In this document: in pieces, positions 4,327 to 44,634 of the stretch
Layout of the letters: the number at the start of each line of letters is the position of its first letter
Position numbering within the stretch: position 1 is the first letter of the stretch
Source: Thermoanaerobaculia bacterium
GTDB taxonomy: Bacteria; Acidobacteriota; Thermoanaerobaculia; Multivoradales; Multivoraceae
Direction: 5' to 3'
Length of the DNA: 64,000 bases
NCBI GenBank assembly: GCA_963664405.1
Contig: OY761158.1
Location: forward strand, 6,176,001 to 6,240,000
Position numbers and translations under genes: made by a program
Notes under the pieces: generated by a model
What the model saw: only the letters and a program-made list of their open reading frames with translations
What the model was told of the DNA's origin: nothing
Database searches by the model: none

Positions 4327-4483
4327 GGGTCATCGATCTTATCGCTCCCGCGGCGCCTCCGAGAGGTACCACCCTCTTAGTTGTTCGAAGGCTCTGACCT
4401 CGACCCGCTTTGTGGAGACGCTCATCTACGCAAGGGCCTAGTCCTCACTTACGTCTATTGATGTCAGGAGGAATTGCAAAGAA

Positions 4484-5419
4484 GTGCGGAAACCCAGAGG
4501 ACTGGTCGCAAACCGCCTGGTGGAGATTACCTGCCGGACACAGCAGGGACGCTTTCTCCTGTGCCCCTCGCCGGAGGTGAATCGGATCATCCTCGGCGTC
4601 ATAGGTCGCGCTCAGCGTCGCATGGGAATGACGATATGCGGGCTCGCCGTTCTCTCGAACCACTACCACATGCTGGTGATTCCCGAGAGCACGGAGCATC
4701 TGAGCGACTTCATGGAGTTCGTGAACGGTAACATCGCTCGCAAGGTCGGTGTGCTTCACGGCTGGTCGGGGAAGTTCTGGAGCAAGCCCTACAGTCACAT
4801 CATAGTTTCGGATGAGGAGGAGGCCCAGATCGGGCGTCTTTACTACCTTCTCTCTCACGGAGCGAAGGAGGGTTTGGTCCGCGACCCCAGGGACTGGCCC
4901 GGTGTTCATTGTGCAGGTCATCTCCGACGCGGCTACTCGGAAATGTTGGGCGGGGAGTGGCACGACGAGACTCAAGAGTACAACGCTCGTCGTAAAGGTA
5001 AAGAGCTGAATCTAGGCGACTTTCTGTACGAGGAGTCGGTCGTGTTGACGCCTCTTCCCTGCGCGAAGGATTGGAGCTTCAGGAAGAAGATCGAGTTGGT
5101 CCGGGGTCAGCTACGAGAGATCAGTGGGGTGGTCCGGCAGCGGATTGAGGAAACCGGGAGGCCTCCGTTGGGAGTGAAGAAGATTCTGCGGCAGGATCCC
5201 CACTTCCGGCCGGAGAAGCTGAGCAAGTCGCCGGCTCCCGCCTTTCACGCGGCCTCGAGAGAGCACTACGAGAAGCTCCGAGAGATGTATCGGGACTTTG
5301 TCAATGCTTACCGTGAGGCTGCGGAGAAGCTCAAAGAGGGAGTGCTGGATGCGGTATTCCCGCCGGGTTGTTTCCCTCCCGGACTACCTTACGTGCCCGA
5401 GGTGCGGGCCGGACCGTGA
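4484..5419 (+). CDS. HUH/Y1 transposase, RAYT-like (IS200/IS605 superfamily)
   Basis: HUH motif SNHYHML, ITCRT N-terminal motif, GKFW, Y-x6-KEGLV..P.DWPG. Confidence 0.85.
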   Translation: MRKPRGLVANRLVEITCRTQQGRFLLCPSPEVNRIILGVIGRAQRRMGMTICGLAVLSNHYHMLVIPESTEHLSDFMEFVNGNIARKVGVLHGWSGKFWSKPYSHIIVSDEEEAQIGRLYYLLSHGAKEGLVRDPRDWPGVHCAGHLRRGYSEMLGGEWHDETQEYNARRKGKELNLGDFLYEESVVLTPLPCAKDWSFRKKIELVRGQLREISGVVRQRIEETGRPPLGVKKILRQDPHFRPEKLSKSPAPAFHAASREHYEKLREMYRDFVNAYREAAEKLKEGVLDAVFPPGCFPPGLPYVPEVRAGP

Positions 5420-12564: not shown

Positions 12565-14604
12565 ATGCGATCCAGTCGACCGATCCTGAGCCCCGTCGCG
12601 GCACTCGCCGCCACCCTTCTGGCTCAGGCCTGTAGCCTGAGACACGAGGACTGGCCCGTATATCTGGGCGACCCTGGTCGCACCCACTACACGCGCCTCC
12701 GACAGATCAATCGAGACAACGTCAGCCAGCTCGAGCTCGCCTGGGTCTACGATTCCTCGGGCGGGTCGCCAACGACCCGGTCGTCGATGTATGCGAGTCC
12801 GTTGGTGATCGACGGCGTTCTTTATGGGTTGTCGCCAAGACTTGTCGCCTTTGCCGTGAATGCGGCCACGGGTGAAGAGCTTTGGCGCTCGGACCAGGGC
12901 CTCAGCGGTGACGCTCAGCGGGGATTGATGTGGTGGGAGAAGGGCGACGACCGGCGCCTGTTTTTTACTCACGGCAAGGACTTGCTTGCCTTGAACGCGG
13001 AGAACGGGCGGCCGGTCCAGAGCTTCGGTGAGTCGGGCCGGCTCGATCTGACCCCGAAGATAGCGAGAAGGGGAAATATCAGAGTCACCGTACCTGGCGT
13101 CGTGTATGAGGATCTGCTCATCCTCGGCTTCACCACCAGCGAGAGTGAAGACGCGTTTCCGGGTTCGGTTCGTGCCTTCAGCGCGATCGACGGAAAGCCG
13201 GTCTGGCAGTTCGACACCATCCCGGCTCCCGGCGATCCGGGGTCCGAGACCTGGGCGGAGGGGTCGCTCGAGCACGCGGGCGGTGCCAATGTCTGGAGCG
13301 GAATGGCGCTCGACGAAGAGCGGGGCATCCTCTTTGCTCCGACTGGGTCGTCGACGCCGGACTTCTACGGCGCCAACCGCCTGGGCGACAACCTCTTCGC
13401 CAACTCTCTGCTTGCAATCGACGCACGGAACGGAAAGCTCAAGTGGCATTTTCAGGTCGTGCGCCACGACTTGTGGGACAAAGACAATCCCTCGCCCCCG
13501 ACCCTGGTCGAGCTCGAGCGCGACGGCAAGACGATTGATGCGGTGGCGCTCACCACCAAGACCGGACAGCTCTTTGTCTTCGACCGTGAGACCGGCGAAT
13601 CGATGTATCCCATCCACGAGGTGGAAACTCCGCTTCCAAGTACGCTTCCAGGCGAGGTCCCGGCTTCGAGTCAACCGGCTTCGTCGGTCATCATCGCCCG
13701 GCAGGAGTTCGAGATAACCAACCGTAGCGAGGAGGCGCGGAAGTTCGTCGAGGAGAAGATACAGGACTGGGATCTACGGCCCTGGGCACCGCCAAGGGTA
13801 GGAACCGTTCTCTTCTATCCCTGGTACGACGGGGGTGCGGAGTGGGGTGGCTCAGCCTTCGATCCGAACAGCAATCATCTGATTGTGAACTCGAACGAAG
13901 CAGCCGCCATTCTCGAGCTCACCGAGGTTCCGGTTGGCTCGAGTAACTACGGTACCTACGCACGCCACTGCGCCAGCTGTCATGGACTGGTGCTCGAAGG
14001 CACCGACGCGGCACCCGAGCTGCTTGGAGTCGGCAAGCGCCTGGGCCTAGCCGAGATCCGCCGGATCATCCGCGAAGGTACGGGTCGCATGGACGGATTC
14101 GCTTTTCTCGCCGCGGTCGAGCTGCGGGCCGTCGAAAGGTACATTCTCGCGCCCGAGCCCGAGATCGACGAGCCGACGTCGGACCTCTCGTACTTCCTCT
14201 CCAGCGGCTATGTCTACCTACGCGACCACGAGAACCTCCCAGGGAACTCGCCGCCCTGGGGCACGCTGAATTCGATCGACCTGGCTACGGGTGAGATCGC
14301 CTGGAAGGTGCCCTTCGGCGATTACCTCTCGCACCCCGACCTCGGCTTCGGAGCCGTCAACTACGGCGGCCCTGTCGTCACCGCTTCGGGATTGATCTTC
14401 ATTGCGGCGACGCCTGACGAAAAGTTCCGCGCCTACGACACCCGAAGCGGCGAGGTGCTCTGGGAGACCAAGCTGTCCGCCGCGGGCCATTCGACGCCGG
14501 CGGTCTACAGTGTCGACGGCAAACAATACGTCGTCATCGCCGCCGGCGGCGGCCGAACGGGGACGCCCTCGGGCGCCGACTATATGGCCTTCGCCCTCCC
14601 CTGA
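12565..14604 (+). CDS. PQQ-dependent dehydrogenase (quinoprotein glucose DH family) with cytochrome c domain
   Basis: WPVYLGD, GGANVWSGM, WHFQVVRHDLWD, heme motif CASCH, GKQYVVIAAGGG. Confidence 0.92.
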   Translation: MRSSRPILSPVAALAATLLAQACSLRHEDWPVYLGDPGRTHYTRLRQINRDNVSQLELAWVYDSSGGSPTTRSSMYASPLVIDGVLYGLSPRLVAFAVNAATGEELWRSDQGLSGDAQRGLMWWEKGDDRRLFFTHGKDLLALNAENGRPVQSFGESGRLDLTPKIARRGNIRVTVPGVVYEDLLILGFTTSESEDAFPGSVRAFSAIDGKPVWQFDTIPAPGDPGSETWAEGSLEHAGGANVWSGMALDEERGILFAPTGSSTPDFYGANRLGDNLFANSLLAIDARNGKLKWHFQVVRHDLWDKDNPSPPTLVELERDGKTIDAVALTTKTGQLFVFDRETGESMYPIHEVETPLPSTLPGEVPASSQPASSVIIARQEFEITNRSEEARKFVEEKIQDWDLRPWAPPRVGTVLFYPWYDGGAEWGGSAFDPNSNHLIVNSNEAAAILELTEVPVGSSNYGTYARHCASCHGLVLEGTDAAPELLGVGKRLGLAEIRRIIREGTGRMDGFAFLAAVELRAVERYILAPEPEIDEPTSDLSYFLSSGYVYLRDHENLPGNSPPWGTLNSIDLATGEIAWKVPFGDYLSHPDLGFGAVNYGGPVVTASGLIFIAATPDEKFRAYDTRSGEVLWETKLSAAGHSTPAVYSVDGKQYVVIAAGGGRTGTPSGADYMAFALP

Positions 14605-32784: not shown

Positions 32785-35098
32785 ACGAAAGCAGCCGCAC
32801 TCAAATCACTCGTCCTGATCGCTTCCCTCTGTCTCTGCGCTCTGCCGTTATCGGCGGACGGTCCGCAGACCGGAACCATCGACGGTCGCGTCCTCGACGC
32901 GCAGGGAGGCGGCCTGCCGGGGGCCACGGTGACCCTGAAGGGTCCGCAGAGAACGACGACGGTGATGTCCGACGCCGGCGGGAAGTACCGCTTCGCGCTC
33001 CTTCAGGCCGGTGACTTCACGGTCACTGCAGAGCTCGAGGGGCTCGGTTCGGCCGAGCAGACGGTCGGGCTCACTCCGGGTCAGCGCCGCGGTGTCGACC
33101 TCACTCTGGCGGGAGGAGCCGCCGAGGAGATCACCGTCACCGGTGAGGCGGCCCAGATCAGCAAGTACGACACCGGCTCGGTCAGCTCGCTGCAGTCGGA
33201 GGCGAACGAGAATATCGCCTTCGCCAATCGTAACTATGCCGCCAGTGTTCGCGCCCTTCCCGGGGTGGTGAGCGCCGGCGAGTCCGACGCTCTCCCGATG
33301 ATCAACGGCGGCATCACCACCGAGACCCAGGTCTTGATCGAAGGTGTCGACACCTCGAACACGCGGCGCGGTGGTGAGACGCGGGTGATCATGCCGACGT
33401 CGTCCCTGTCGGAGACTCGGATCGAGAGCGGCGGGTTCGGCGCCGAGTACGGTCGGGTGACCGGCGGCATCATCAACTCGACGGTCAAGACCGGTACCAA
33501 CGAGTTTCACGGCGACTTTCTCTACATCGGCCAGAATCCCAAGTGGAGGGCCGAGGACAACCTGGGCCTCGAACGTCCGGACGATCCTTTCGCCAGCTTC
33601 GAGACTTCGCTGGGCGGGCCGATCTGGCGCGAGAAGGCCTGGTTCTTCGCCGCCTATGCGGACTTCACCAACAACTCCCTCGACGAGCTCCGGGACGGCA
33701 CGGTTATCGATGATAGTCGGACCTCGGAGCCGCGCATCCTCAAGGTGAATCTCCAGCCCAGCGACCGCCACCAACTGGCTATCACCGAGATCGATTCGCG
33801 GGGGAATGGCATCGCCAATCCGGGTAATTCCGGTGATCTTTTGTCGGTCATGGATCGTCCGCTGTACGCCCAGGTTCTGACCGGGACCTGGAGCTTCGCC
33901 GCGACCAGCTCGACCTTCGTCGAGGTCAAGGCGTCTGAGCGCAAGGACCTCTTTCCTCGCACTCTTCTCTTCCCCAAGGATCCGTCGACCCTCAACCCCG
34001 ACGCTTCCGACAATCCGGTTGACAACAATTTCCGCTATCGCGATCTCAACACGAATCTGCGCTGGAATGGCCCGGCGAGTGGGAGTGGCATCGGCTACAA
34101 CGACTTTCCTCGCGACACTCTGGGCGGCTCGGCGACCTTGTTCAAGGCCAACCACGAGCTCAAGTTCGGCATCGACTTCCAAGACATCGAATTCACCAAT
34201 CTGGGTCAGGTCGGCAAGGAATATCGCGGCCGCACCTACTGCTTTGAATGCCCCGGTGGCTACGTGGCACCCCAGAGAGTCAGGATCTTCGAGGATTCCG
34301 AGCCGTCTCGCAATACCGGCGAGGAGCTCTCGGTGTATGCCCAGGATCGGATCGATGTCGGTGATAAGTGGAGTTTCCACCTCGGCGTGCGTCTCGACGA
34401 AGAGCGGATGTGGAACGACGTCGGTAGGCAGGTCGACGATTCGAGCGACGTGGCGCCGCGTCTGACCGCAGTCTACGACGTCAAGGCTGACGGCAAGCTG
34501 CTGGTGCGGGCGAGCGTCGGGAGCTACTACCAGAACCTCGGCCTGGACTTCGCGTTCCGAGAGTTCAGCGAGCTGCCCACCGGGCAGCAGGCGTTCACCG
34601 AGTACAACTGGAACCCTGCTACCCAGCGCTACGACCGCTTCCGTACCACCGTCGCCCCGTCGGGCGCGGGGGGTGAGATCCAGATGGTCGATCACGCTCG
34701 CAGAGACCAGATTACGGTTGGGGTCGACGTCCAGCTGTCTCGGAACTGGGTGTTCAAGGGGGGCCTGGTGGCACATGAGACCGACGGCATTCCCTTCGGC
34801 AACACTCAGTACCTCGGTGGCACACCCGGACACAGGTTTCGAGATCGACTTCGCTACCCGAGACGAGGCACGAGACGGGAATCAGCTACAGGACTACTTC
34901 ACCCTCAACCTGTCGGCGATGTACTCTTTCCCGATCAAGGGTCCGGTGGAGGGGGAGCTCGGCTTCGAGGCTTCCAACATCACCGAGAAGGACGAAGTGC
35001 TCCTGGTCAACTCGCTCGAGGGCCTGACGGCTGCCTCCTCGGTCAACTCGTGGCAGCAGCCTCGTGAGTTTCGTCTCAAGGTCGGGATCCGCTTCTAG
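32785..35098 (+). pseudogene. Second Oar-like TonB-dependent receptor, degraded
   Basis: Paralog of 27315-30038. ACG at the position of the paralog's ATG; roughly 0.4-kb internal deletion with frameshift near 34810; the C-terminal VGIRF is in another frame. Confidence 0.85.
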
Positions 35099-35111: not shown

Positions 35112-35152
35112 GTCTCGAGGCGGGTGGCGCCGTTGCACCCCCGCCTCGAGAC
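35112..35152 (+). terminator. GC-rich stem-loop after TonB receptor 2 (related hairpin at about 30052-30095)
   Basis: 13-bp perfect stem GTCTCGAGGCGGG / CCCGCCTCGAGAC; weak pyrimidine tail. Confidence 0.5.
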
Positions 35153-35256
35153 CTTCCTTCACTTCGGTAGCTCTCAGCTCTGCCTCGAGGCACCCTCAGC
35201 GTGACAGTGCCGGCCAGCCGGTGCCGACGGTCAACCCCTGATACGCTGCTCTGGCG

Positions 35257-35673
35257 ATGTTGGAGTCCGAATCACTCATTCAGACTGTCCACCAGCGATT
35301 GGCCAGCTCTGCCGAAGACGAAGTCGTCTCCGCGTTCCTTTTCGGCAGCCGCGTCGAGGGACGCGGGCATCGGGAGAGCGACGTCGACGTGGCGGTCCTT
35401 CTGCGGCCTGAGCTCGACCGACGACAGCGCTTCGAGACCCGGCTGCGGCTGACCTCGGAGCTCATCGCCGCGCTCCATTTCAACGACATCGACCTCGTCG
35501 TGCTCAACGATGCTCCGCCTCTCCTCGCTCGCCGAATCGTGCTCGACGGGGAGCGGGTGTTTTGCGCCGACGCCGAGGCCGATCACGCCTTCCGACGGGA
35601 TGTGCAGCTGCGGGCCGCAGATCTCGCACCCTTCATCGAGCGTGGCCGGAGAGCGCTGCTTGCCGCGGTCTAG
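35257..35673 (+). CDS. mntA: MntA-type nucleotidyltransferase antitoxin (type VII TA)
   Basis: GSx10DxD motif GSRVEGRGHRESDVD; IDLVVLNDAPPLL. Confidence 0.88.
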   Translation: MLESESLIQTVHQRLASSAEDEVVSAFLFGSRVEGRGHRESDVDVAVLLRPELDRRQRFETRLRLTSELIAALHFNDIDLVVLNDAPPLLARRIVLDGERVFCADAEADHAFRRDVQLRAADLAPFIERGRRALLAAV

Positions 35674-35675
35674 CG

Positions 35676-36089
35676 ATGACCTTCTTGGTCGAACGCCTCG
35701 CCAACCTCAGCCTTCATCTTGCTCATCTGCGAGAGTTGAAGCCGCGCGTGGCCTCCGCTGACGATCTGCAGCGTGACCTGTCTCTACATAACGACGTTCT
35801 CTACTCGCTGCTCTGCGTTTGCCAGCTAGTGATCGATATCGCGGGGGAGCTCTCTGCTCGCCGGGGTCGACGATTCGAGGACTACACGGAGGCCGTGCGC
35901 AACCTCTCGGCCTACGACGACATGTCGCCGGAGCTCATCCAGGAGCTCGAACGGCTTCCGGGATTTCGCAACGTGCTGATCCACGAATACGTAGCCTTGG
36001 ATCTCGAGCGGGCGGTCGAGGCCCTGGAGCGCCTGTCCCCGATCGAGGACTTCGTCAGCGTGGTCAAGAGGCTCGAGCGCGAGGGCTGA
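35676..36089 (+). CDS. hepT: HepT/DUF86 HEPN RNase toxin
   Basis: Rx4HxY motif RNVLIHEY; directly follows mntA. Confidence 0.88.
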   Translation: MTFLVERLANLSLHLAHLRELKPRVASADDLQRDLSLHNDVLYSLLCVCQLVIDIAGELSARRGRRFEDYTEAVRNLSAYDDMSPELIQELERLPGFRNVLIHEYVALDLERAVEALERLSPIEDFVSVVKRLEREG

Positions 36090-36123
36090 CGGCTGGACCC
36101 TGAGGCGCGGCACCTACCCTCGA

Positions 36124-36138
36124 TATTCGGCTGGCACC
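36124..36138 (+). repeat. Cassette-boundary repeat R1
   Basis: TATTCGGCTGGCACC between hepT and vapB. Confidence 0.8.
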
Positions 36139-36187
36139 TACGGAGGCGATACGGACATATTGACATCTCCGTGATATGTTTTTCTGT

Positions 36188-36430
36188 ATGCGTACTACCT
36201 TGAACCTCGATGACGGCTTGATGACCGCTGTTAAGAAGGCTGCTGCCGACAGCGGAAAGACCATGACCGAGGTCGTCGAAGAAGCACTCACGGATGCACT
36301 GCTGCGGCGGCCGGTCGAGGATGCTCAGTCCTTCGAACTGGCATTACCCACGGTAAAGGGCAGGACCAAGCCGGGCGTCGACCTCACCGATCGGGAGTCG
36401 CTGTTCGAGATCATGGAAGGCCGGCGTTGA
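36188..36430 (+). CDS. vapB: VapB-type RHH antitoxin
   Basis: MRTTLNLDDGL...TMTEVVEEAL; overlaps vapC. Confidence 0.85.
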   Translation: MRTTLNLDDGLMTAVKKAAADSGKTMTEVVEEALTDALLRRPVEDAQSFELALPTVKGRTKPGVDLTDRESLFEIMEGRR

Positions 36431-36861
36431 TTGCCGTCGACACCAACGTCCTCGTCCATGCCCATCGAGAGGGATCGGAGCATCACCATGCGGCTCTCGA
36501 GCGGCTGCGAGATCTGGCCGAGGGCCCGGAGCCGTGGGGCCTGCCGATCTTCTGTGTGGGTGAGTTCGTGCGAGTGGTGACTCACCCTCGTCTCTTCGAT
36601 CCCCCTTCGACGTTGGCCCAAGCCCTGGCGGTGATCGACCGTCTCCGCCGCAGCCCTACGCTTCGGGTGCTCTCCCCACGAGAGCGCTTCTTCGAGTTGT
36701 TCTCGTCGTGTCTCACGACGGCGGATGCCCGTGGCAACCTGGCTTTCGATGCCATGATCGCCGCCGTCTGCCTCGAGCACGGCGCCCGTCAGCTGCTCAC
36801 ACTCGACCGCGACTTTCGCCGCTTTGATCGACTTGAGGTGGTTGGTTATGGGCCGGCCTGA
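36427..36861 (+). CDS. vapC: VapC PIN-domain toxin
   Basis: IAVDTNVLV, EF.RVVTHP, DA.IAA, TLDRDF. Confidence 0.92.
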   Translation: MIAVDTNVLVHAHREGSEHHHAALERLRDLAEGPEPWGLPIFCVGEFVRVVTHPRLFDPPSTLAQALAVIDRLRRSPTLRVLSPRERFFELFSSCLTTADARGNLAFDAMIAAVCLEHGARQLLTLDRDFRRFDRLEVVGYGPA

Positions 36862-36880
36862 GAGCGCTGGCAATGCTCAC

Positions 36881-36919
36881 TATTCGGCTGGCACCCTTGC
36901 CCGCACCCTTGCCCACGGG
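36881..36919 (+). repeat. Cassette-boundary repeat R2
   Basis: TATTCGGCTGGCACCCTTGCCC-GCACCCTTGCCC-ACGGG (internal 12-bp duplication relative to R3). Confidence 0.85.
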
Positions 36920-36996
36920 GACACGCGAACCATCAATCCTTTCTGCTCTCCAGCTGCCGGCGGAGGGTACGTTAGAATGTGAGCGAGGAGATTTCC

Positions 36997-37194
36997 ATGG
37001 CTACCGCCGACGTCAGCGCGAAAACTCGAATCCGTAATCTGCTAGAGCAGCAGCCCGACGACAGCTCGTACGATGAGATCTTGCGAGAGTTGGCCCTGCA
37101 CCGCATGATCGAGCGAGGCCTCGCCGATGCAGACGCAGGGCGGGTCCTCAGCCATGAAGAAATGGGCCGTCGAATCGACTCATGGGCCAAGTAG
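36997..37194 (+). CDS. Antitoxin of a ParE/RelE module
   Basis: IERGLADADAGRVLSHEE...W pattern; RBS GAGGAG; overlaps the toxin start. Confidence 0.8.
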   Translation: MATADVSAKTRIRNLLEQQPDDSSYDEILRELALHRMIERGLADADAGRVLSHEEMGRRIDSWAK

Positions 37195-37478
37195 GATGGA
37201 CCGAAGAGGCGGCCCGTTGGCTCAGAGAAATCCACGACTACATCGCTGATGAGGACCCGGAGGCTGCCATCCGAGTCGTCGGCGAGATCCACTCTCGCGC
37301 TGAGTCACTGACCTCGTTTCCTGAGCGTGGCTACCGCTACCTGGATCTGCCCGAGCGAGAAGTACGCATTCTCCTGTGGGGCCACTACCGGATCGCGTAT
37401 CTCGTCCGCTCGTCGGGTGACGTCGAGATACTCGGCATCTTCCACGGGGCACTCGAGATCGAGCGGTACTTGCGCTGA
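37182..37478 (+). CDS. RelE/ParE family toxin
   Basis: WTEEA..WL.EI.DYIA.EDP.AA, L..FPERG, YRIAY, ILGIFHG. Confidence 0.9.
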   Translation: MGQVGWTEEAARWLREIHDYIADEDPEAAIRVVGEIHSRAESLTSFPERGYRYLDLPEREVRILLWGHYRIAYLVRSSGDVEILGIFHGALEIERYLR

Positions 37479-37510
37479 GTAGGTCAGACTACTAGGTCCG
37501 CAGGGCCCAT

Positions 37511-37537
37511 TATTCGGCTGGCACCCTTGCCCACGGG
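37511..37537 (+). repeat. Cassette-boundary repeat R3
   Basis: TATTCGGCTGGCACCCTTGCCCACGGG. Confidence 0.85.
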
Positions 37538-37552
37538 CGCTTCTGGCTAAAA

Positions 37553-37587
37553 TGTCCATGGACAGTGTCTATGGACAGAGCTAGAAT
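37553..37587 (+). promoter_or_regulatory. Twin palindromic operator overlapping a sigma-70-like promoter of the phd-vapC operon
   Basis: TGTCCATGGACA-G-TGTCTATGGACA; TGGACA-17 bp-TAGAAT. Confidence 0.65.
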
Positions 37588-37596
37588 GGGTGGACA

Positions 37597-37854
37597 ATGG
37601 AGGACACCGACACTAGAACGATTCCGGCTGGTGACTTCAAACAGACCTGTTTGAAACTGATAGATGAGGTCAAGACCACGGGGATCCCGATCGTGATTAC
37701 GAAGCACGGCAAGGCCGTCGCCCAGCTTGCGCCACTGGAGCCGGACCAGATCGAGCTTCCCTGGCCGCTCGAGCTCGCCGCGCGCGCGACGATCGAAGGG
37801 GATCTCGTAACCCCGGCGACCGACCCGACAGAGTGGGAAGTTCTTTCAGATTGA
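37597..37854 (+). CDS. Phd/YefM antitoxin
   Basis: IPAGDFKQTCLKLIDEV..TG.PIVITKHGKAVAQL. Confidence 0.9.
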   Translation: MEDTDTRTIPAGDFKQTCLKLIDEVKTTGIPIVITKHGKAVAQLAPLEPDQIELPWPLELAARATIEGDLVTPATDPTEWEVLSD

Positions 37855-38243
37855 AGCTCCTCCTCGATACCCACGTCTGGCTCTGGCGCTTGATCGAGCC
37901 CGCGCGGCTGTCGAAGGACGCCACTGCTCTGCTGGCCGAACGTGAGCAGGAGCTCTTTTTGTCACCGATCTCGGTCTGGGAGACCATGGTCCTGTGCCGG
38001 AAGGGTCGGCTGACCCTGCGGCCGGACCCGGCGTCTTGGGTTCGTGCGGCTCTCGCTGGCTCGCCGGTCAGAACCGCCCTCATGACGCACGAAGTCGCGA
38101 TCCGCAGCGAATCCCTGGAAGGTTTCGACAATTCGGATCCCGCCGACCGCTTCCTAGTGGCTACGGCTCTCGAGGCCGGTCTCAAGATCGTCACCTACGA
38201 CGAGCGAATCCGCTCCTATGCGGCGGTCGAAACGGTCTGGTGA
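37851..38243 (+). CDS. vapC: VapC PIN-domain toxin
   Basis: LLLDTHVWLW, SPISVWE, DPADRFLVATA, VTYDERI; TTG start overlapping the antitoxin stop. Confidence 0.9.
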   Translation: MKLLLDTHVWLWRLIEPARLSKDATALLAEREQELFLSPISVWETMVLCRKGRLTLRPDPASWVRAALAGSPVRTALMTHEVAIRSESLEGFDNSDPADRFLVATALEAGLKIVTYDERIRSYAAVETVW

Positions 38244-38284
38244 TCTCGCCGGGCCGTTCCAAGTACCGTTAGTTACTAGCTAAA

Positions 38285-38297
38285 TACTCGGCTGGCA
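38285..38297 (+). repeat. Cassette-boundary repeat R4, split by the intron
   Basis: TACTCGGCTGGCA | intron | CC (40333-40334) rejoins to TACTCGGCTGGCACC. Confidence 0.85.
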
Positions 38298-40332
38298 GTG
38301 CGACACGAAGGAGGAATCTGATGACCTGATCGAAAGACAGAGATAGGAGACCTCTGGGTCTCGAAGGCCGGCGGGTGAAAGTCCCGCCCGGGGAGTTGTC
38401 GGTACACCCCGGTAGCCGCCGGAGCAGTCGATGCGGGTGACCGTCCGGCTGAAGCCTCCGGAACAGCTGGAGTAAGTCCAGTGGGCAAAGGTGCAGGCCG
38501 CAACGCGAGTGAACCCTGAGAAGGCCCCGAAAGTTACTTGCTGGAGCCGACCCTCCTGCCATAAGGGGAAGGCCGCCGCTCGACGGAGGAGCAACCGACC
38601 GTTGAATCCGCCGAATCCAGCCGGGGTAGTGGGGGTGGCATGTACCGAAGGTCTTTGAGGCAACGTGTGAGACCCACGTCGGTGGCGGGTTGCGACCGCC
38701 AACCGGGAAGGCGTAAAAGGTCGTTCTCGGGCCGTTGTGGGAGTCGGAGGGGCTTGTATTACTGAGGAAGCCGGGTAACTCCGGTGGAGGGAAGGAGCCC
38801 TAGTTCTGGTGCGCTTTGGAAGGAGAAGGAGACCGGGATTGACGCAAAGTCTAGGACCCGAACGAGTCGAGCGACTCCGGAAGAAGCTGTGTGACAAGGC
38901 CAAGCGAGAGCCCGACTTTCGCTTCTACACCCTGTACGACAAGGTCTGCTGGCCCGAGACCCTATCTGTGGCCTACGCCCGCGCGAAAGCCAACCGGGGA
39001 GGCCCGGGAGTGGACGGAGTCCGGTTCGAGGAGATCGAGTCGTATGGGGTCGAGCGATGGCTGGGAGAGCTCCGAGAGGAGCTGGTAGAGGAAAGCTACC
39101 GTCCGCAACCGGTGCGGCGGGTGAAGATTAGGAAGCCCGGCGGCGGAGAGCGTGCGCTCGGGATCCCGACGATTCGGGATCGAGTGGCGCAAACCGCCGC
39201 AGTGCTGATCCTCGAGCCGATCTTCGAGGCCGATTTTGAAGAGAACGTGTATGGGTATCGACCGAAGCGGAGCGCCCATGATGCGCTAGCTGCCGTACGA
39301 GACGGTTTGTACGAGGGCCAGGCCCACGTCGTCGACGCCGACATCGCCCAGTACTTTGACACGATTCCCCATGGGGATTTGCTGAAGTCGGTGGCGCGTC
39401 GGATCGCCGATGGGAAGATCCTGCGACTCTTGAAGCTGTGGCTGAAGTCTCCAGTGGACGAGCAAGATGGCTCGGGTCGCTGGCGACGGACAGGCGGCAA
39501 GAAGAGGAAGCGGGGGATTCCGCAGGGTGGGGTGGTCTCACCCCTCCTGGCCAACATCTACATCAACCGGCTCGTGCGTCACTGGCGCAACTCAGGCGCC
39601 TCGAAACGCCTAGGTCAGATCGTCTCTTACGCCGATGATTTCGTCATCCTGTGCAGGAGCGAGGCGCAGGCTCGCGAGAGCTTGGATCTCGTCTCTCACT
39701 GGCTGACAAAGCTCGGCTTAGCGATTCACCCGGACAAGACCCGCCTGTGCGGGGTGTGGGAGGAGTCGTTCGACTTTCTGGGGTACACCTTCAGATCGCA
39801 TCGACGCTTCCGCACCGGCCAGCGGATCTTGACTGCGAACCCTTCGAAGAAGGCCCAGAAGCGGCTCCAGGAGAAGGTCAACGCCCTGCTGTATCGGGGG
39901 AACCCGGAGCCCTGGCCCGAGCTGCGTCTGCAGCTGAACCGTCTTTTGATGGGATGGGCCAACTACTTCAGCTTCGGATGGACGGCAGCTGCGGATCGCG
40001 CCGTCTGGTGGCATGTCGCGAGACGTGCCCGACGATTCCTCTGTCGACGACACAAACTCCGATCGCAAGGAGTCGCCCGGTTTTCTGCCTCCGAGGTCTA
40101 CGGCTCAGCCGCAGTCCTCGACATCAAGCAGTACCGGGATCGAAAGGGTCGACTCGCGCATGCCTCGTCGTGAAGCCAGTCCGGGAGCCGTGTGCGGGAG
40201 AACCGCAAGCACGGTTCGATGAGAGGCGGCGGGAAACGGAGCCATGGTCAGGAGATTGAGGCACTCGCAAACGAAAGGGCGAGAAAACAGATGGGCCTGA
40301 CCTACAGCCACCGCGCCCGCCGTCGACTCCAC
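38298..40332 (+). mobile_element. Group II intron (about 2035 nt)
   Basis: 5' GUGCG; domain V GAGCCGUGUGCGGGAGAACCGCAAGCACGGUUC at about 40185-40218; long domain VI ending ...GACUCCAC; encodes an RT/maturase. Confidence 0.92.
38839..40173 (+). CDS. ltrA: Group II intron reverse transcriptase/maturase, no endonuclease domain
   Basis: RT0 PGVDG, LGIPTIRDR, YGYRP.RS, PQGGVVSPLLANIY, YADD, FDFLGY, maturase GWANYF. The TTG start at 38839 is approximate. Confidence 0.95.
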   Translation: MTQSLGPERVERLRKKLCDKAKREPDFRFYTLYDKVCWPETLSVAYARAKANRGGPGVDGVRFEEIESYGVERWLGELREELVEESYRPQPVRRVKIRKPGGGERALGIPTIRDRVAQTAAVLILEPIFEADFEENVYGYRPKRSAHDALAAVRDGLYEGQAHVVDADIAQYFDTIPHGDLLKSVARRIADGKILRLLKLWLKSPVDEQDGSGRWRRTGGKKRKRGIPQGGVVSPLLANIYINRLVRHWRNSGASKRLGQIVSYADDFVILCRSEAQARESLDLVSHWLTKLGLAIHPDKTRLCGVWEESFDFLGYTFRSHRRFRTGQRILTANPSKKAQKRLQEKVNALLYRGNPEPWPELRLQLNRLLMGWANYFSFGWTAAADRAVWWHVARRARRFLCRRHKLRSQGVARFSASEVYGSAAVLDIKQYRDRKGRLAHASS

Positions 40333-40374
40333 CCTTTTTCTGGGCGCCACTGCGCGGCTATATGACCGTCGCCC

Positions 40375-40387
40375 TATTCGGCTGATC
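40375..40387 (+). repeat. Degenerate cassette-boundary repeat R5
   Basis: TATTCGGCTGATC; first 10 nt match the consensus. Confidence 0.55.
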
Positions 40388-40453
40388 TGAAGCATGTACA
40401 CTCCGCACAATCAGCGCCAGAGAAAACGCTCATCGAGCGCGAGCACAACCTAA

Positions 40454-42458
40454 GGGTCGGCGCGGAAATAAGTTTCCAGTATCTGGGGTGACCATACCAC
40501 TGCCCCCTTCTTCAGCCACCGCATAATCCTCCGGTACGCGCCTTGTTTGCAAGGTTTAGAGCTAGCATAGCCCTGCCCGCATTTGGTATAGTTTCCCCTG
40601 TCACCTCTTTTGGAAGGGGAACTATACCAAATGGTACGAGCCGAAGATCGTGATGCAACAGTGCGCGAGCTCTTGATGAGCGAACAGATGGCCACCATGG
40701 ATGAGCTCAAGGACGCCATGGGAACCCGAGCCACCATGACGGTCTACCGTTCGCTGTCTCGATTGGGCTATTTGGCCAGCTACTCGGATCGAGGGCGGTT
40801 CTATACCTTGAACGAGATTCCCGATTTCGACGATCTGGGTTTGTGGTCGTGCGGTTCGGCGAGGTTCAGTCGGCATGGCAGCCTCCTCGAAACTGCGGTG
40901 GCTGCCGTGGACCGGTCCGCTGCCGGCTATACGGCTTCTGAACTCGAGCTCCTGCTGCAGGTCGAGGTCAAGCACGCGATGTTGCACCTCGTTCGTCGCA
41001 AGAGAATCGTACGATCCAGAGTTGGGAAGAGGTTCGTATACTTGTGCTCGGAAACAGGGCGCCGTCGTCAGCAGAAGCTGATGCGCAACGAACGGCAGGC
41101 TCTCCAGGATGTAGCTGCCAGCCTCGTTCCAGAAGTGCTCCCCGAGGAGCTCAGGGCTGCCATCGTTTTATTCTTCAGCCTGCTAGACGAACGCCAGCGG
41201 CGGCTCTTCGCTGGCCTGGAAGCGACCAAGCTCGGGCATGGCGGCGACCGGAAGATCGCCGATCTTCTGGACCTGGACCCTCATACAGTCGCAAAAGGAC
41301 GTCGCGAGCTCTTCGGCGGCTCCGTGGAGCGCGGAAGAGTTCGAAGAGCAGGCGGTGGCAACCAACGAGTGGAAAAAAAACGCCCGAGATAGTCGATGGA
41401 ATCCATTCCATACTCGAGGCCGATATAGCTGGTGATCCCATGTCATCAAAAAGATGGACGCACGAGACCGCTGCAAAGGTGGCCCAATGCCTTGCCGAAC
41501 GCCTTGACATCATCGTATCGGCTACGGTGGTGCGTCGATTGCTCGCAGACCTGAACTATTCCCTCAAGAGCAATAGGAAATGTCTGTCTTCGGGGAACTC
41601 CCCAGATCGTGATGCACAGTTCAAGGCCATCAAGCGACTGCGCGAGGATTTCACAAGCGCTGGCGACCCGATCATCAGCGTCGATACGAAGAAGAAGGAG
41701 CTGATCGGTCGGTTCAAGAACCAGGGACAGACATGGTGCCGCGAGGCCAAGCGGGTCAAGGATCACGACTTCCGGTCCGAAGCTCTCGCCATCGCCTCCC
41801 CCTATGGGATCTACGATCTTCAGAGGAACTTCGGCGTTCTCGTCCTCGGACAGTCGTCGGACACGCCGGAGTTCGCTGTCAACAGCATCGCGACCTGGTG
41901 GCTCAAATACGGTCGATCTCACTATCCGGCGTCTCAGCGTCTCCTCATTCTTGCCGACAGCGGCGCAAGCAACGGCGCACGGCTTCGAGCCTGGAAGAAG
42001 TACCTCCAGGAGAAGCTCGTAGACAAGTGCGGCCTCATCATCACCGTCGCCCACTATCCAACTGGCACCAGTAAATGGAATCCCATCGAGCACAGGATGT
42101 TCAGCGAGATTAGCAAGAACTGGGCCGGAGTTCCTCTCGAGAGTTTCGAGATCCTCGTCAACCTCGTCCGCAACACGACGACATCCACCGGACTGCGCGT
42201 CGAGCCGTGCCGTGATCAACGCCAATACCAGAAAGGAGTCAGGGTATCGGACAAGGAAATGCTGCAGCTCGCGGTGGCCAGGAGCGACTTCCTAGGAAAG
42301 TGGAACTACACCCTCTCGCCGAGACCGCGAACCGAGCAGGAAGAGCTTGCCCCACAGCCTGGGCTCAGCTCACCACCACCTCCAATGCAGCGACCGCCCT
42401 GTGGCGCCTCGGCCTCACACGCTCCGGCGATAATGTGAAGTTATTTCCGCGCCGACCC
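40454..42458 (+). mobile_element. ISAzo13-family IS, copy 1 (2005 bp)
   Basis: 18-bp TIR GGGTCGGCGCGGAAATAA / TTATTTCCGCGCCGACCC; left flank TAA. Confidence 0.92.
40631..42438 (+). CDS. ISAzo13 transposase via a predicted -1 frameshift at A8 (41373-41380)
   Basis: OrfA LDERQRRLFAGLEA..LGHGG...RVRRAGGG; OrfB GDPMS, ISVDTKKKELIG, HDF, ADSG.SN, HYPTGTSKWNPIEHRMFS. Confidence 0.9.
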
Positions 42459-42461
42459 TTA

Positions 42462-44466
42462 GGGTCGGCGCGGAAATAAGTTTCCAGTATCTGGGGTGAC
42501 CATACCACTGCCCCCTTCTTCAGCCACCGCATAATCCTCCGGTACGCGCCTTGTTTGCAAGGTTTAGAGCTAGCATAGCCCTGCCCGCATTTGGTATAGT
42601 TTTCCCTGTCACCTCTTTTGGAAGGGGAACTATACCAAATGGTACGAGCCGAAGATCGTGATGCAACAGTGCGCGAGCTCTTGATGAGCGAACAGATGGC
42701 CATCATGGATGAGCTCAAGGACGCCATGGGAACCCGAGCCACCATGACGGTCTACCGTTCGCTGTCTCGATTGGGCTATTTGGCCAGCTACTCGGATCGA
42801 GGGCGGTTCTATACCTTGAACGAGATTCCCGATTTCGACGATCTGGGTTTGTGGTCGTGCGGTTCGGCGAGGTTCAGTCGGCATGGCAGCCTCCTCGAAA
42901 CTGCGGTGGCTGCCGTGGACCGGTCCGCTGCCGGCTATACGGCTTCTGAACTCGAGCTCCTGCTGCAGGTCGAGGTCAAGCACGCGATGTTGCACCTCGT
43001 TCGTCGCAAGAGAATCGTACGATCCAGAGTTGGGAAGAGGTTCGTATACTTGTGCTCGGAAACAGGGCGCCGTCGTCAGCAGAAGCTGATGCGCAACGAA
43101 CGGCAGGCTCTCCAGGATGTAGCTGCCAGCCTCGTTCCAGAAGTGCTCCCCGAGGAGCTCAGGGCTGCCATCGTTTTATTCTTCAGCCTGCTAGACGAAC
43201 GCCAGCGGCGGCTCTTCGCTGGCCTGGAAGCGACCAAGCTCGGGCATGGCGGCGACCGGAAGATCGCCGATCTTCTGGACCTGGACCCTCATACAGTCGC
43301 AAAAGGACGTCGCGAGCTCTTCGGCGGCTCCGTGGAGCGCGGAAGAGTTCGAAGAGCAGGCGGTGGCAACCAACGAGTGGAAAAAAAACGCCCGAGATAG
43401 TCGATGGAATCCATTCCATACTCGAGGCCGATATAGCTGGTGATCCCATGTCATCAAAAAGATGGACGCACGAGACCGCTGCAAAGGTGGCCCAATGCCT
43501 TGCCGAACGCCTTGACATCATCGTATCGGCTACGGTGGTGCGTCGATTGCTCGCAGACCTGAACTATTCCCTCAAGAGCAATAGGAAATGTCTGTCTTCG
43601 GGGAACTCCCCAGATCGTGATGCACAGTTCAAGGCCATCAAGCGACTGCGCGAGGATTTCACAAGCGCTGGCGACCCGATCATCAGCGTCGATACGAAGA
43701 AGAAGGAGCTGATCGGTCGGTTCAAGAACCAGGGACAGACATGGTGCCGCGAGGCCAAGCGGGTCAAGGATCACGACTTCCGGTCCGAAGCTCTCGCCAT
43801 CGCCTCCCCCTATGGGATCTACGATCTTCAGAGGAACTTCGGCGTTCTCGTCCTCGGACAGTCGTCGGACACGCCGGAGTTCGCTGTCAACAGCATCGCG
43901 ACCTGGTGGCTCAAATACGGTCGATCTCACTATCCGGCGTCTCAGCGTCTCCTCATTCTTGCCGACAGCGGCGCAAGCAACGGCGCACGGCTTCGAGCCT
44001 GGAAGAAGTACCTCCAGGAGAAGCTCGTAGACAAGTGCGGCCTCATCATCACCGTCGCCCACTATCCAACTGGCACCAGTAAATGGAATCCCATCGAGCA
44101 CAGGATGTTCAGCGAGATCAGCAAGAACTGGGCCGGAGTTCCTCTCGAGAGTTTCGAGATCCTCGTCAACCTCGTCCGCAACACGACGACATCCACCGGA
44201 CTGCGCGTCGAGCCGTGCCGTGATCAACGCCAATACCAGAAAGGAGTCAGGGTATCGGACAAGGAAATGCTGCAGCTCGCGGTGGCCAGGAGCGACTTCC
44301 TAGGAAAGTGGAACTACACCCTCTCGCCGAGACCGCGAACCGAGCAGGAAGAGCTTGCCCCACAGCCTGGGCTCAGCTCACCACCACCTCCAATGCAGCG
44401 ACCGCCCTGTGGCGCCTCGGCCTCACACGCTCCGGCGATAATGTGAAGTTATTTCCGCGCCGACCC
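42462..44466 (+). mobile_element. ISAzo13-family IS, copy 2 (direct tandem)
   Basis: Same TIRs; TTA spacer to copy 1; right flank TAA; at least 3 substitutions relative to copy 1. Confidence 0.92.
42639..44446 (+). CDS. ISAzo13 transposase via a predicted -1 frameshift at A8 (43381-43388)
   Basis: Same two-ORF organisation as copy 1. Confidence 0.9.
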
Positions 44467-44634
44467 TAAGTGGACCGTAACACCCAAACGTTTAGCGCCT
44501 GAGCGGCCCTCGCGGCCGATCTCTGCGTTACGCTTCCTCGACATAGTCCCCGCTATGCCTGCGTCAGCGCGCCTTGGTCTCGACCACGAATGACTCACTC
44601 AGCCACTAAACGTTCGAGTGTTACGGTCCACTAG
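44467..44634. mobile_element. ERIC-like MITE copy E3
   Basis: TIR GTGGACCGTAACAC / GTGTTACGGTCCAC followed by TAG; core GCGTTACGC..CCTCGACATAG..CTATGCCTGCG..CGCCTTG. Confidence 0.8.

Follow-up and report, generated by a model that had tools for sequence, protein, structure and literature searches.

Toxin–antitoxin operons and repeats at the locus

The subject of this study is a 15-bp repeat that follows each of four toxin–antitoxin (TA) operons in a stretch of 64,000 nucleotides from the genome of a Thermoanaerobaculia bacterium (assembly GCA_963664405.1, contig OY761158.1, positions 6,176,001 to 6,240,000 of the forward strand; hereafter the window). An earlier interpretation made from the letters alone (the sequence-only reading) had described the operons as unrelated and co-oriented, and Pfam searches bore this out. 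All four lie on the + strand. The first (35257..36089) encodes an MntA-like nucleotidyltransferase (35257-35673; PF18765, 1.5e-18) and a HepT-like RNase (35676-36089; PF01934, 1.3e-14), and the second (36188..36861) a VapB/ribbon-helix-helix (RHH) antitoxin (36188-36430; PF09957/PF01402) and a PIN toxin (36427-36861; PF01850, 1.1e-16). In the third (36979..37478), a small antitoxin open reading frame (ORF; 36979/36997-37194) that has no Pfam match precedes a ParE toxin (37182-37478; PF05016, 3.9e-14), while the fourth (37597..38243) pairs a Phd antitoxin (37597-37854; PF02604) with a PIN toxin (37854-38243; PF01850). By their Pfam content (Polbeta nucleotidyltransferase and HepT, VapB/RHH and PIN, antitoxin and ParE, Phd and PIN) the operons are mutually unrelated. 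The phd-vapC unit had also been credited with its own operator and promoter, in agreement with the palindromic operator and promoter-like site that a promoter scan and folding located at 37559-37587.

The sequence that follows each operon is TA(T/C)TCGGCTGGCACC. Exact copies of TATTCGGCTGGCACC begin at 36124, 36881 and 37511 on the + strand (R1 to R3), and TACTCGGCTGGCA begins at 38285 (R4). When up to three mismatches were allowed, the window contained 18 matches compared with 3.58 expected, and none of 100 shuffled sequences reached 18. The copies stand 34, 19, 32 and 41 bp past the respective stop codons and delimit units of 757, 630 and 774 bp, exactly as the sequence-only reading had measured them. 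R1 (36124..36138, +) consists of the core TATTCGGCTGGCACC and has no perfect hairpin within 8 nt. In R2 (36881..36920, +) the core is extended by CTTGCCC[GCACCCTTGCCC]ACGGGG, with a 12-nt tandem duplication inside, and in R3 (37511..37537, +) by CTTGCCCACGGG; the elements CTTGCCC...ACGGG are common to both, and 27 nt are shared on either side of the parDE unit. The 5' part of R4 (TACTCGGCTGGCA; 38285..38297, +) is separated by a group II intron from its last bases, CC, at ~40333-40334. A degenerate fifth copy that had been placed 55 bp after R4 once the intron is removed was likewise found, as a partial match of 10/15 bases (TATTCGGCTG; 40375..40384, +) at this distance from the R4 start. Inspection by eye suggested two other resemblances, one at 35209-35231 (inverted and degenerate) and one at ~35112-35152, where a motif-like stretch lies within a hairpin; neither is among the matches at up to three mismatches.

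A genome-wide repeat family with an adjoining hairpin

The repeat is not confined to the array. In the 6.78-Mb genome the motif gave 109 matches at up to two mismatches versus 15 for a reversed control, and 50 versus 0 at up to one mismatch. The sequence-only reading, which had proposed an integron-like array, held that scatter of the motif across the genome with no link to gene boundaries would count against this view, and the scatter, one part of this, is what we observed. The inside and outside labels used here refer to ORFs of at least 200 aa, the crude gene caller having chosen wrong-strand ORFs in the TA array; by these labels 73 of the 109 matches lie outside long ORFs. The consensus of these 73 copies, ..aaTaTTCGGgTGGCACCt.gg..gcc....g.....gggg, extends beyond the core, and 30 of them carry a perfect hairpin of 5-9 bp that starts no more than 8 nt past the motif. 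The corresponding figures were 5/36 for matches inside long ORFs and 214/3000 (7.1%) for random positions. Most stems are GGCAGCC/GGCTGCC, and CGTTCGC, GCCGGCC, GGGCGG and GGCTCG stems occur at the same offset. Since these unrelated stem sequences occupy one position relative to the motif, the structure of the hairpin is kept while its sequence changes. The 15-nt core itself is not the palindrome; the hairpin adjoins it.

Inverted pairs of copies lie ~50-60 nt apart, start to start, for example at 12658/12707, 3940825/3940874, 4459769/4459817 and 5768729/5768780. Extended similarity between copies is short (45-150 nt), and across the genome they show no uniform orientation to the genes beside them (crude gene calls put 17, 10, 9 and 8 in the four possible arrangements). 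Rfam searches at E<=1 on eight copy-bearing loci gave no match to a known RNA family. The TGGCAC within the motif led us to consider a σ54 promoter; this candidate was rejected, as the distance to a TTGC-like element varies by eye and misfits the usual spacing.

Short tandem duplications that begin at GCACC, right after the core, were seen in R2 (36896-36920) and at genome positions 13698, 50340, 2590024 and 5145218. In three sister genomes (G019, G020 and G028) they extend to head-to-tail arrays of units with a period of ~27-36 bp. These duplications may be the footprint of a nicking site or of repeated nicking, or may reflect slippage. In G020 (C14:54430-54606) the core also recurs at 18- and 36-bp periods in a sequence that would read as the peptide NSGGTF..., and this may be a coding repeat with only a superficial likeness to the motif.

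The distribution of the motif among genomes is patchy. Of the 31 genomes compared, the array genome has 50 copies and G020, G019, G028 and G021 have 35, 14, 13 and 8, respectively; no more than five were found in any of the remaining 26. An exact 14-mer occurs in 15 of 121 genomes sampled from the class, including the array genome, and in none of 18 genomes of the same family. Across a genome collection, the 15-mer matches listed are single ones in unrelated taxa, about the chance level, and a metagenome scan for the 22-nt form of R2 and R3 returned no match. Such a patchy distribution is easier to reconcile with a selfish repeat than with a regulatory site under conservation.

Association with RayT-like Y1 genes

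The window also contains a Y1 (HUH) transposase gene encoding a RayT-like protein of 311 aa (4484..5419, +; PF01797, 25.8 bits versus a cut-off of 23), which the sequence-only reading had named as a candidate enzyme for its gene-capture system. The H-Y-H residues are visible in ...SNHYHMLV..., and the only NCBIfam match is REP_Tyr_transpos (NF047646; 40.1 bits versus a cut-off of 80, model positions 7-144 of 146). Its nearest solved relative is the TnpA of ISDra2 (E 1e-3), while the Escherichia coli TnpA-REP scored E 0.19. Among the best 120 homologs, 22 were named, and 13 of these are called 'REP element-mobilizing transposase RayT'. Most of the homologs reside on contigs of 1-3 kb, as expected of multi-copy elements that break metagenome assemblies.

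The genome has 14 Y1 loci, with 33-99.7% identity to the window protein. An outward-facing motif is located 71-260 nt upstream of the Y1 gene in 9 of the 14 loci when up to four mismatches are allowed (~1.0 match expected), in 6/14 at up to three (0.15 expected) and in 4/14 at up to two (0.04 expected). At three loci an outward motif with no more than two mismatches is also present 223-257 nt downstream, and inverted copies stand on either side of two of the genes, 2207929-2208819 and 6395054-6395944. In the window itself, a degenerate copy with four mismatches (TAAGAGGGTGGTACC; 4365..4379, -) faces away from the RayT-like gene 119 nt upstream. Paralogous Y1 units resemble one another as far as the motif and hairpin and no further. 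Among 20 Y1 loci of sister genomes, an outward 10-mer core with at most one mismatch was found upstream in six, downstream in five and on both sides in three, at the same distances. A link between this gene and the repeat is therefore supported by the outward copies that flank its paralogs, in sister genomes as well. Because the Y1 family is present in 25 of the 31 genomes and the motif is patchy, the motif accompanies only some Y1 lineages.

A group II intron inserts into the repeat core

A group II intron (38298..40332, +; Rfam RF02003, 99.4 bits, and RF00029, 41.4 bits) interrupts R4 after TGGCA. It contains a reverse transcriptase/maturase ORF (38809-40173) with RVT_1 and GIIM domains (TIGR04416, 374 bits versus a cut-off of 300). 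Comparison of the 3' ends of four intron copies placed the end of this copy near 40332, to within ~3 nt. The 3' exon begins with CCT and restores the full repeat TACTCGGCTGGCACCT. Other copies or fragments of the intron are located at genome positions 2592101, 2890811, 6396014, 1589105(-) and 2075364(-). All six are found directly after T-N-N-TCGG(C/G)TGGCA, five with the C variant and one with the G variant, and R4 is split because the intron homes to the C variant of the core. The ORF is kept only in the window copy. The copy at 2592101 is an ORF-less derivative of ~855 nt, insertions break up two of the remainder, and the last two are 5' fragments, 75 and 312 nt long.

Within the intron, GCCGAAT (38610) and TGCCA (38557) are complementary to ATTCGGC and TGGCA of the motif. 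On these sequence grounds, recognition appears to involve ~12 nt of the linear core and not an upstream stem-loop. This would set the element apart from class C and attC group II introns, which are reported to recognise their sites via a stem-loop upstream. Insertion into a dispersed repeat has counterparts among elements that home to repeats, such as ISPpu9, ISPpu10, ISPa11 and IS1397 in repetitive extragenic palindromic (REP) sequences and the group II introns at attC sites or terminators. In Pseudomonas putida KT2440, two of nine group II intron copies and all seven copies of ISPpu9 and ISPpu10 are REP-associated (PMC1525189).

A probable REP-like family tied to RayT-like transposases

Taken together, we consider it probable (roughly 0.7) that a REP-like family of dispersed intergenic repeats, tied to RayT-like Y1 genes, has the 15-bp repeat as its conserved core, and that the array is TA-rich accessory DNA with copies of the repeat in its gaps. 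The multi-copy Y1 (HUH) transposases would presumably have spread the family, binding or cutting the repeat DNA. A full unit comprises (G)AA-TATTCGG(G/C)TGGCACC, 1-6 nt, a short hairpin (usually GGCAGCC-GAAG-GCTGCC) and GGG(G), and such units occur as singlets, as REPIN-like inverted doublets and as outward-facing pairs that flank Y1 genes. The core-only copies would occupy intergenic gaps of the accessory DNA that holds the four TA operons, and would have reached them through spread of the repeat or through recombination between its copies, without any capture of cassettes.

The closest parallel is with the REP, bacterial interspersed mosaic element (BIME) and REPIN sequences and the REP-associated tyrosine transposases (RAYTs, TnpA-REP) of Escherichia, Pseudomonas and Stenotrophomonas. 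Both are short extragenic repeats in tens of copies, with a hairpin (here beside 30 of the 73 copies outside long ORFs), arranged as singlets and inverted doublets; both show patchy, lineage-specific expansion, serve as landing sites for other mobile elements and have a Y1/HUH gene flanked by two inverted copies. The layout of RAYT genes with flanking REPs (PMC3337134) matches that of the Y1 loci found here. The two differ in that the conserved part of the present repeat is a 15-nt linear core beside the hairpin and not the palindrome itself, and in that only ~70-100 copies are present. The IS200/IS605 insertion sequences (ISs) and their miniature derivatives, the PATEs, are also comparable: they share the Y1 fold (the ISDra2 match above), hairpins near the ends and a conserved stretch beside the hairpin. 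Their two ends are both read on one strand, whereas those of the present system are in inverted orientation, like the ends that surround RAYT genes. Among the copies inspected, none was noted to have a TnpB gene next to it.

Several observations weigh against this reading. Some concern the likeness to known REP/RAYT systems. GTAG or CGTC tags are reported for REPs (PMC3733652), and neither tetranucleotide occurs in the conserved core of our consensus. The 311-aa protein, with its long C-terminal extension, is about twice the usual RayT length and scores 40 bits where the NCBIfam RayT model asks for 80. Moreover, it belongs to 14 diverged loci, compared with an average of 1.3-1.8 copies per replicon for published RAYT groups (PMC5581495). 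Some of the sister-genome Y1 loci have the core in the opposite orientation, 4/20 upstream and 1/20 downstream.

Other difficulties arise from the array itself. R1 to R3 are core-only and lack the hairpin, which makes them atypical members of the family. All four array copies are co-oriented with the operons, just past the stop codons. The genome has five exact copies of TATTCGGCTGGCACC, and three of them reside here, even though motif positions 1-4 vary widely elsewhere. Since these three exact 15-mers are found together, R2 and R3 share 27 nt, and all copies are direct and core-only, some local process must connect the array copies; recombination or conversion between repeats would be examples, as would local spread and insertion at the repeat. 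This local relatedness is left unexplained by simple spread of the family. Furthermore, outside the array 8 of 53 toxin (PIN/ParE/HepT) genes lie within 1.5 kb of a copy, compared with 1.56 expected, and none of 2000 randomisations reached 8. This enrichment may stem in part from both features sitting in accessory regions, for example the TA-rich island at 6.322-6.338 Mb.

Alternative explanations of the array

One alternative is the capture of cassettes bounded by REP-like sequences, in which TA modules would have been inserted one after another at a single REP site and the direct cores would mark the junctions. A Y1/RayT-like enzyme could cut one strand at two direct copies and re-insert a single-stranded circle at another copy, or host recombination could act between repeats. 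An integron-like array would result in both cases, with no need for IntI or attC. In addition to the direct, co-oriented copies just past stops, the cluster of exact 15-mers and the stretch that R2 and R3 share around parDE, this proposal draws on the presence in each unit of its own TA pair, one of which (phd-vapC) has the promoter-like site and operator palindrome. It is also consistent with the enrichment of TA genes near copies and with a hipBA operon bracketed by two identical copies. In a search of 200 genomes of the order, each of the matches listed (69 more were unlisted) covers a single module with 64-78% DNA identity and stops short of the junctions.

Against capture, ordinary metabolic genes lie in the other stretches that the repeat delimits: copies elsewhere bracket an HpcH/HpaI aldolase, a DUF4886/GDSL-like protein and a cyclase as well as hipBA, in either orientation and upstream or downstream. 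The genome yielded no further array of this type. Of the 53 outside toxin genes, 45 have no copy within 1.5 kb, and at 4.797-4.801 Mb one copy is situated upstream of a TA operon while the next, adjacent TA operon follows with no copy between. The homologous modules elsewhere also lack the repeat. The motif gave no match in 80 loci with VapC homologs (440,741 nt), and only chance-like matches with three mismatches in nine order-level loci with module homologs and in 45 metagenome loci with ParE homologs (135,619 nt). In addition, Y1 enzymes of the IS200/IS605 type recognise a hairpin, and the array copies have none of this kind.

Two comparisons bear on the history of the locus itself. For the DUF3604-like gene downstream of the array, the two best orthologs are in genomes G005 and G014 (68-69% identity), and the 12 kb that precede them have nothing in common with the window at 24-44.6 kb. 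Two sequencing runs (X9 and X11) each yielded a single 3532-nt contig covering 34786-38317, with no differences and no joint listed at the repeats; these data are contigs, which drop rare variants, two of the four runs come from one sample, and those that match the array best may be the data from which the genome was assembled. On balance we regard capture as unlikely. The sequence-only reading had taken the repeat for a recombination or insertion site of a gene-capture system, and the part of this that stands is insertion, by the group II intron in 6/6 cases; the part that is not supported is its role as the delimiter of captured cassettes.

A second alternative is that the element, as the core with or without the hairpin, is kept after operons for a host function, such as stability of the mRNA 3' end, termination or insulation, or binding of nucleoid proteins. 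Transcript stability, termination and nucleoid-protein binding have been reported as roles of REPs, and a function of this type would be compatible with the REP-like family as a secondary role. The position of the array copies 19-41 bp past stops and just ahead of the operator of the next operon would fit, as would the many copies between genes genome-wide and the hairpin that is conserved as a structure while its sequence varies. Conversely, the promoter and terminator scan detected no intrinsic-terminator pattern at R1 to R4, where the hairpin is lacking, the copies have mixed orientations to their neighbours genome-wide (the 17/10/9/8 distribution, on the crude gene calls), and the motif is absent from most genomes of the same family. 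As the primary explanation, a host function thus seems somewhat less likely still.

Integrons are defined by IntI with integron-specific insertion, by attC sites that are imperfect palindromes of 60-140 nt with R''/R' cores and fold as single strands, and by cassettes whose content and order vary between strains. The array resembles chromosomal integrons and integrase-less attC clusters in that co-oriented, promoter-bearing TA modules are each followed by a repeat. It differs from them in having no IntI, no attC-like fold, no evidence of cassette movement, and a repeat that is found genome-wide and flanks transposase genes. A search of the whole genome with the integron integrase model TIGR02249 gave 29 matches, all below the cut-off of 265 bits (best 122 bits), which span model positions 3-181 and 235-313 and skip 181-235. 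When the four intercassette regions were folded as DNA on both strands, no attC-like fold emerged, with z scores of +1.35 to -1.53 relative to shuffled sequences. These results corroborate the claim that attC and a nearby integrase are absent, and dispose of the short hairpins that had been seen before several copies, which fold no better than shuffled sequence. At the gathering threshold, Rfam found only the intron in the array. A true integron remnant, that is, a cluster of very divergent attC sites that has lost its integrase, is therefore highly improbable: the gene-then-repeat layout and TA content recall a chromosomal integron, but the genome has no integron integrase, neither strand of the intercassette regions folds better than its shuffled counterparts, and the repeat is a 15-nt linear core that also flanks Y1 genes, not an imperfect palindrome of 60-140 nt.

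Neighbouring elements

The array ends at two tandem ISs of the ISAzo13 family (40450..44470, +; PF07592, 5.6e-111), which lie outside the repeat system. The elements, at 40450-42460 and 42458-44470, repeat at a spacing of 2008 bp, have inverted ends of ~34 nt and abut at 42429-42491. Each contains ORFs of 260 and 464 aa, and a further copy is present at genome position 6334286-6335680. Next to them, just before the DUF3604-like gene, lies a 164-bp element (44469-44632) with 35-nt inverted repeats that are 89% complementary; it may be a miniature inverted-repeat transposable element or a remnant of IS ends.

Elsewhere in the genome, seven copies of an XerC/D-like tyrosine recombinase (308-316 aa) occur at 34968, 43271, 597025, 615289, 887344, 6274320 and 6759113. 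These score 94-122 bits with TIGR02249, below the cut-off, and one stands beside a second, diverged group II intron at ~884.8-886.2 kb. The TA-rich island (6322001-6338000) contains hipBA, vapBC, hicA-like and brnTA-like genes, an IS6-like fragment, the further ISAzo13 copy and six copies of the repeat. Its hipBA operon, between two identical inward-facing copies, was identified by Pfam, and the other names were assigned from translations.

Implications

As first proposed, the finding would be a new gene-capture system, and the evidence falls short of such a reading. The prospect that TA modules have been picked up and stacked at a REP site, by a RayT-like Y1 enzyme or by inter-REP recombination, with this array as the first visible product, strikes us as rather improbable; if true, REP-based stacking would be a single-strand, HUH-based counterpart of the integron. 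The locus carries a caution as well, in that 'cassette arrays' delimited by repeats can come from ordinary dispersed repeats, and the near-identity of the array copies poses a small question about local recombination at REPs.

On the explanation that we favour, the repeat constitutes a new REP-like family belonging to a RayT-like Y1 system, and it doubles as the homing site of an intron. It would add such a family to a lineage in which these systems appear to be little described, an impression that does not come from a literature search on the point, and would tie it to an unusually long, multi-copy family of RayT-like proteins. The 15-nt core together with its hairpin provides a concrete substrate for probing the role of this RayT-like clade.

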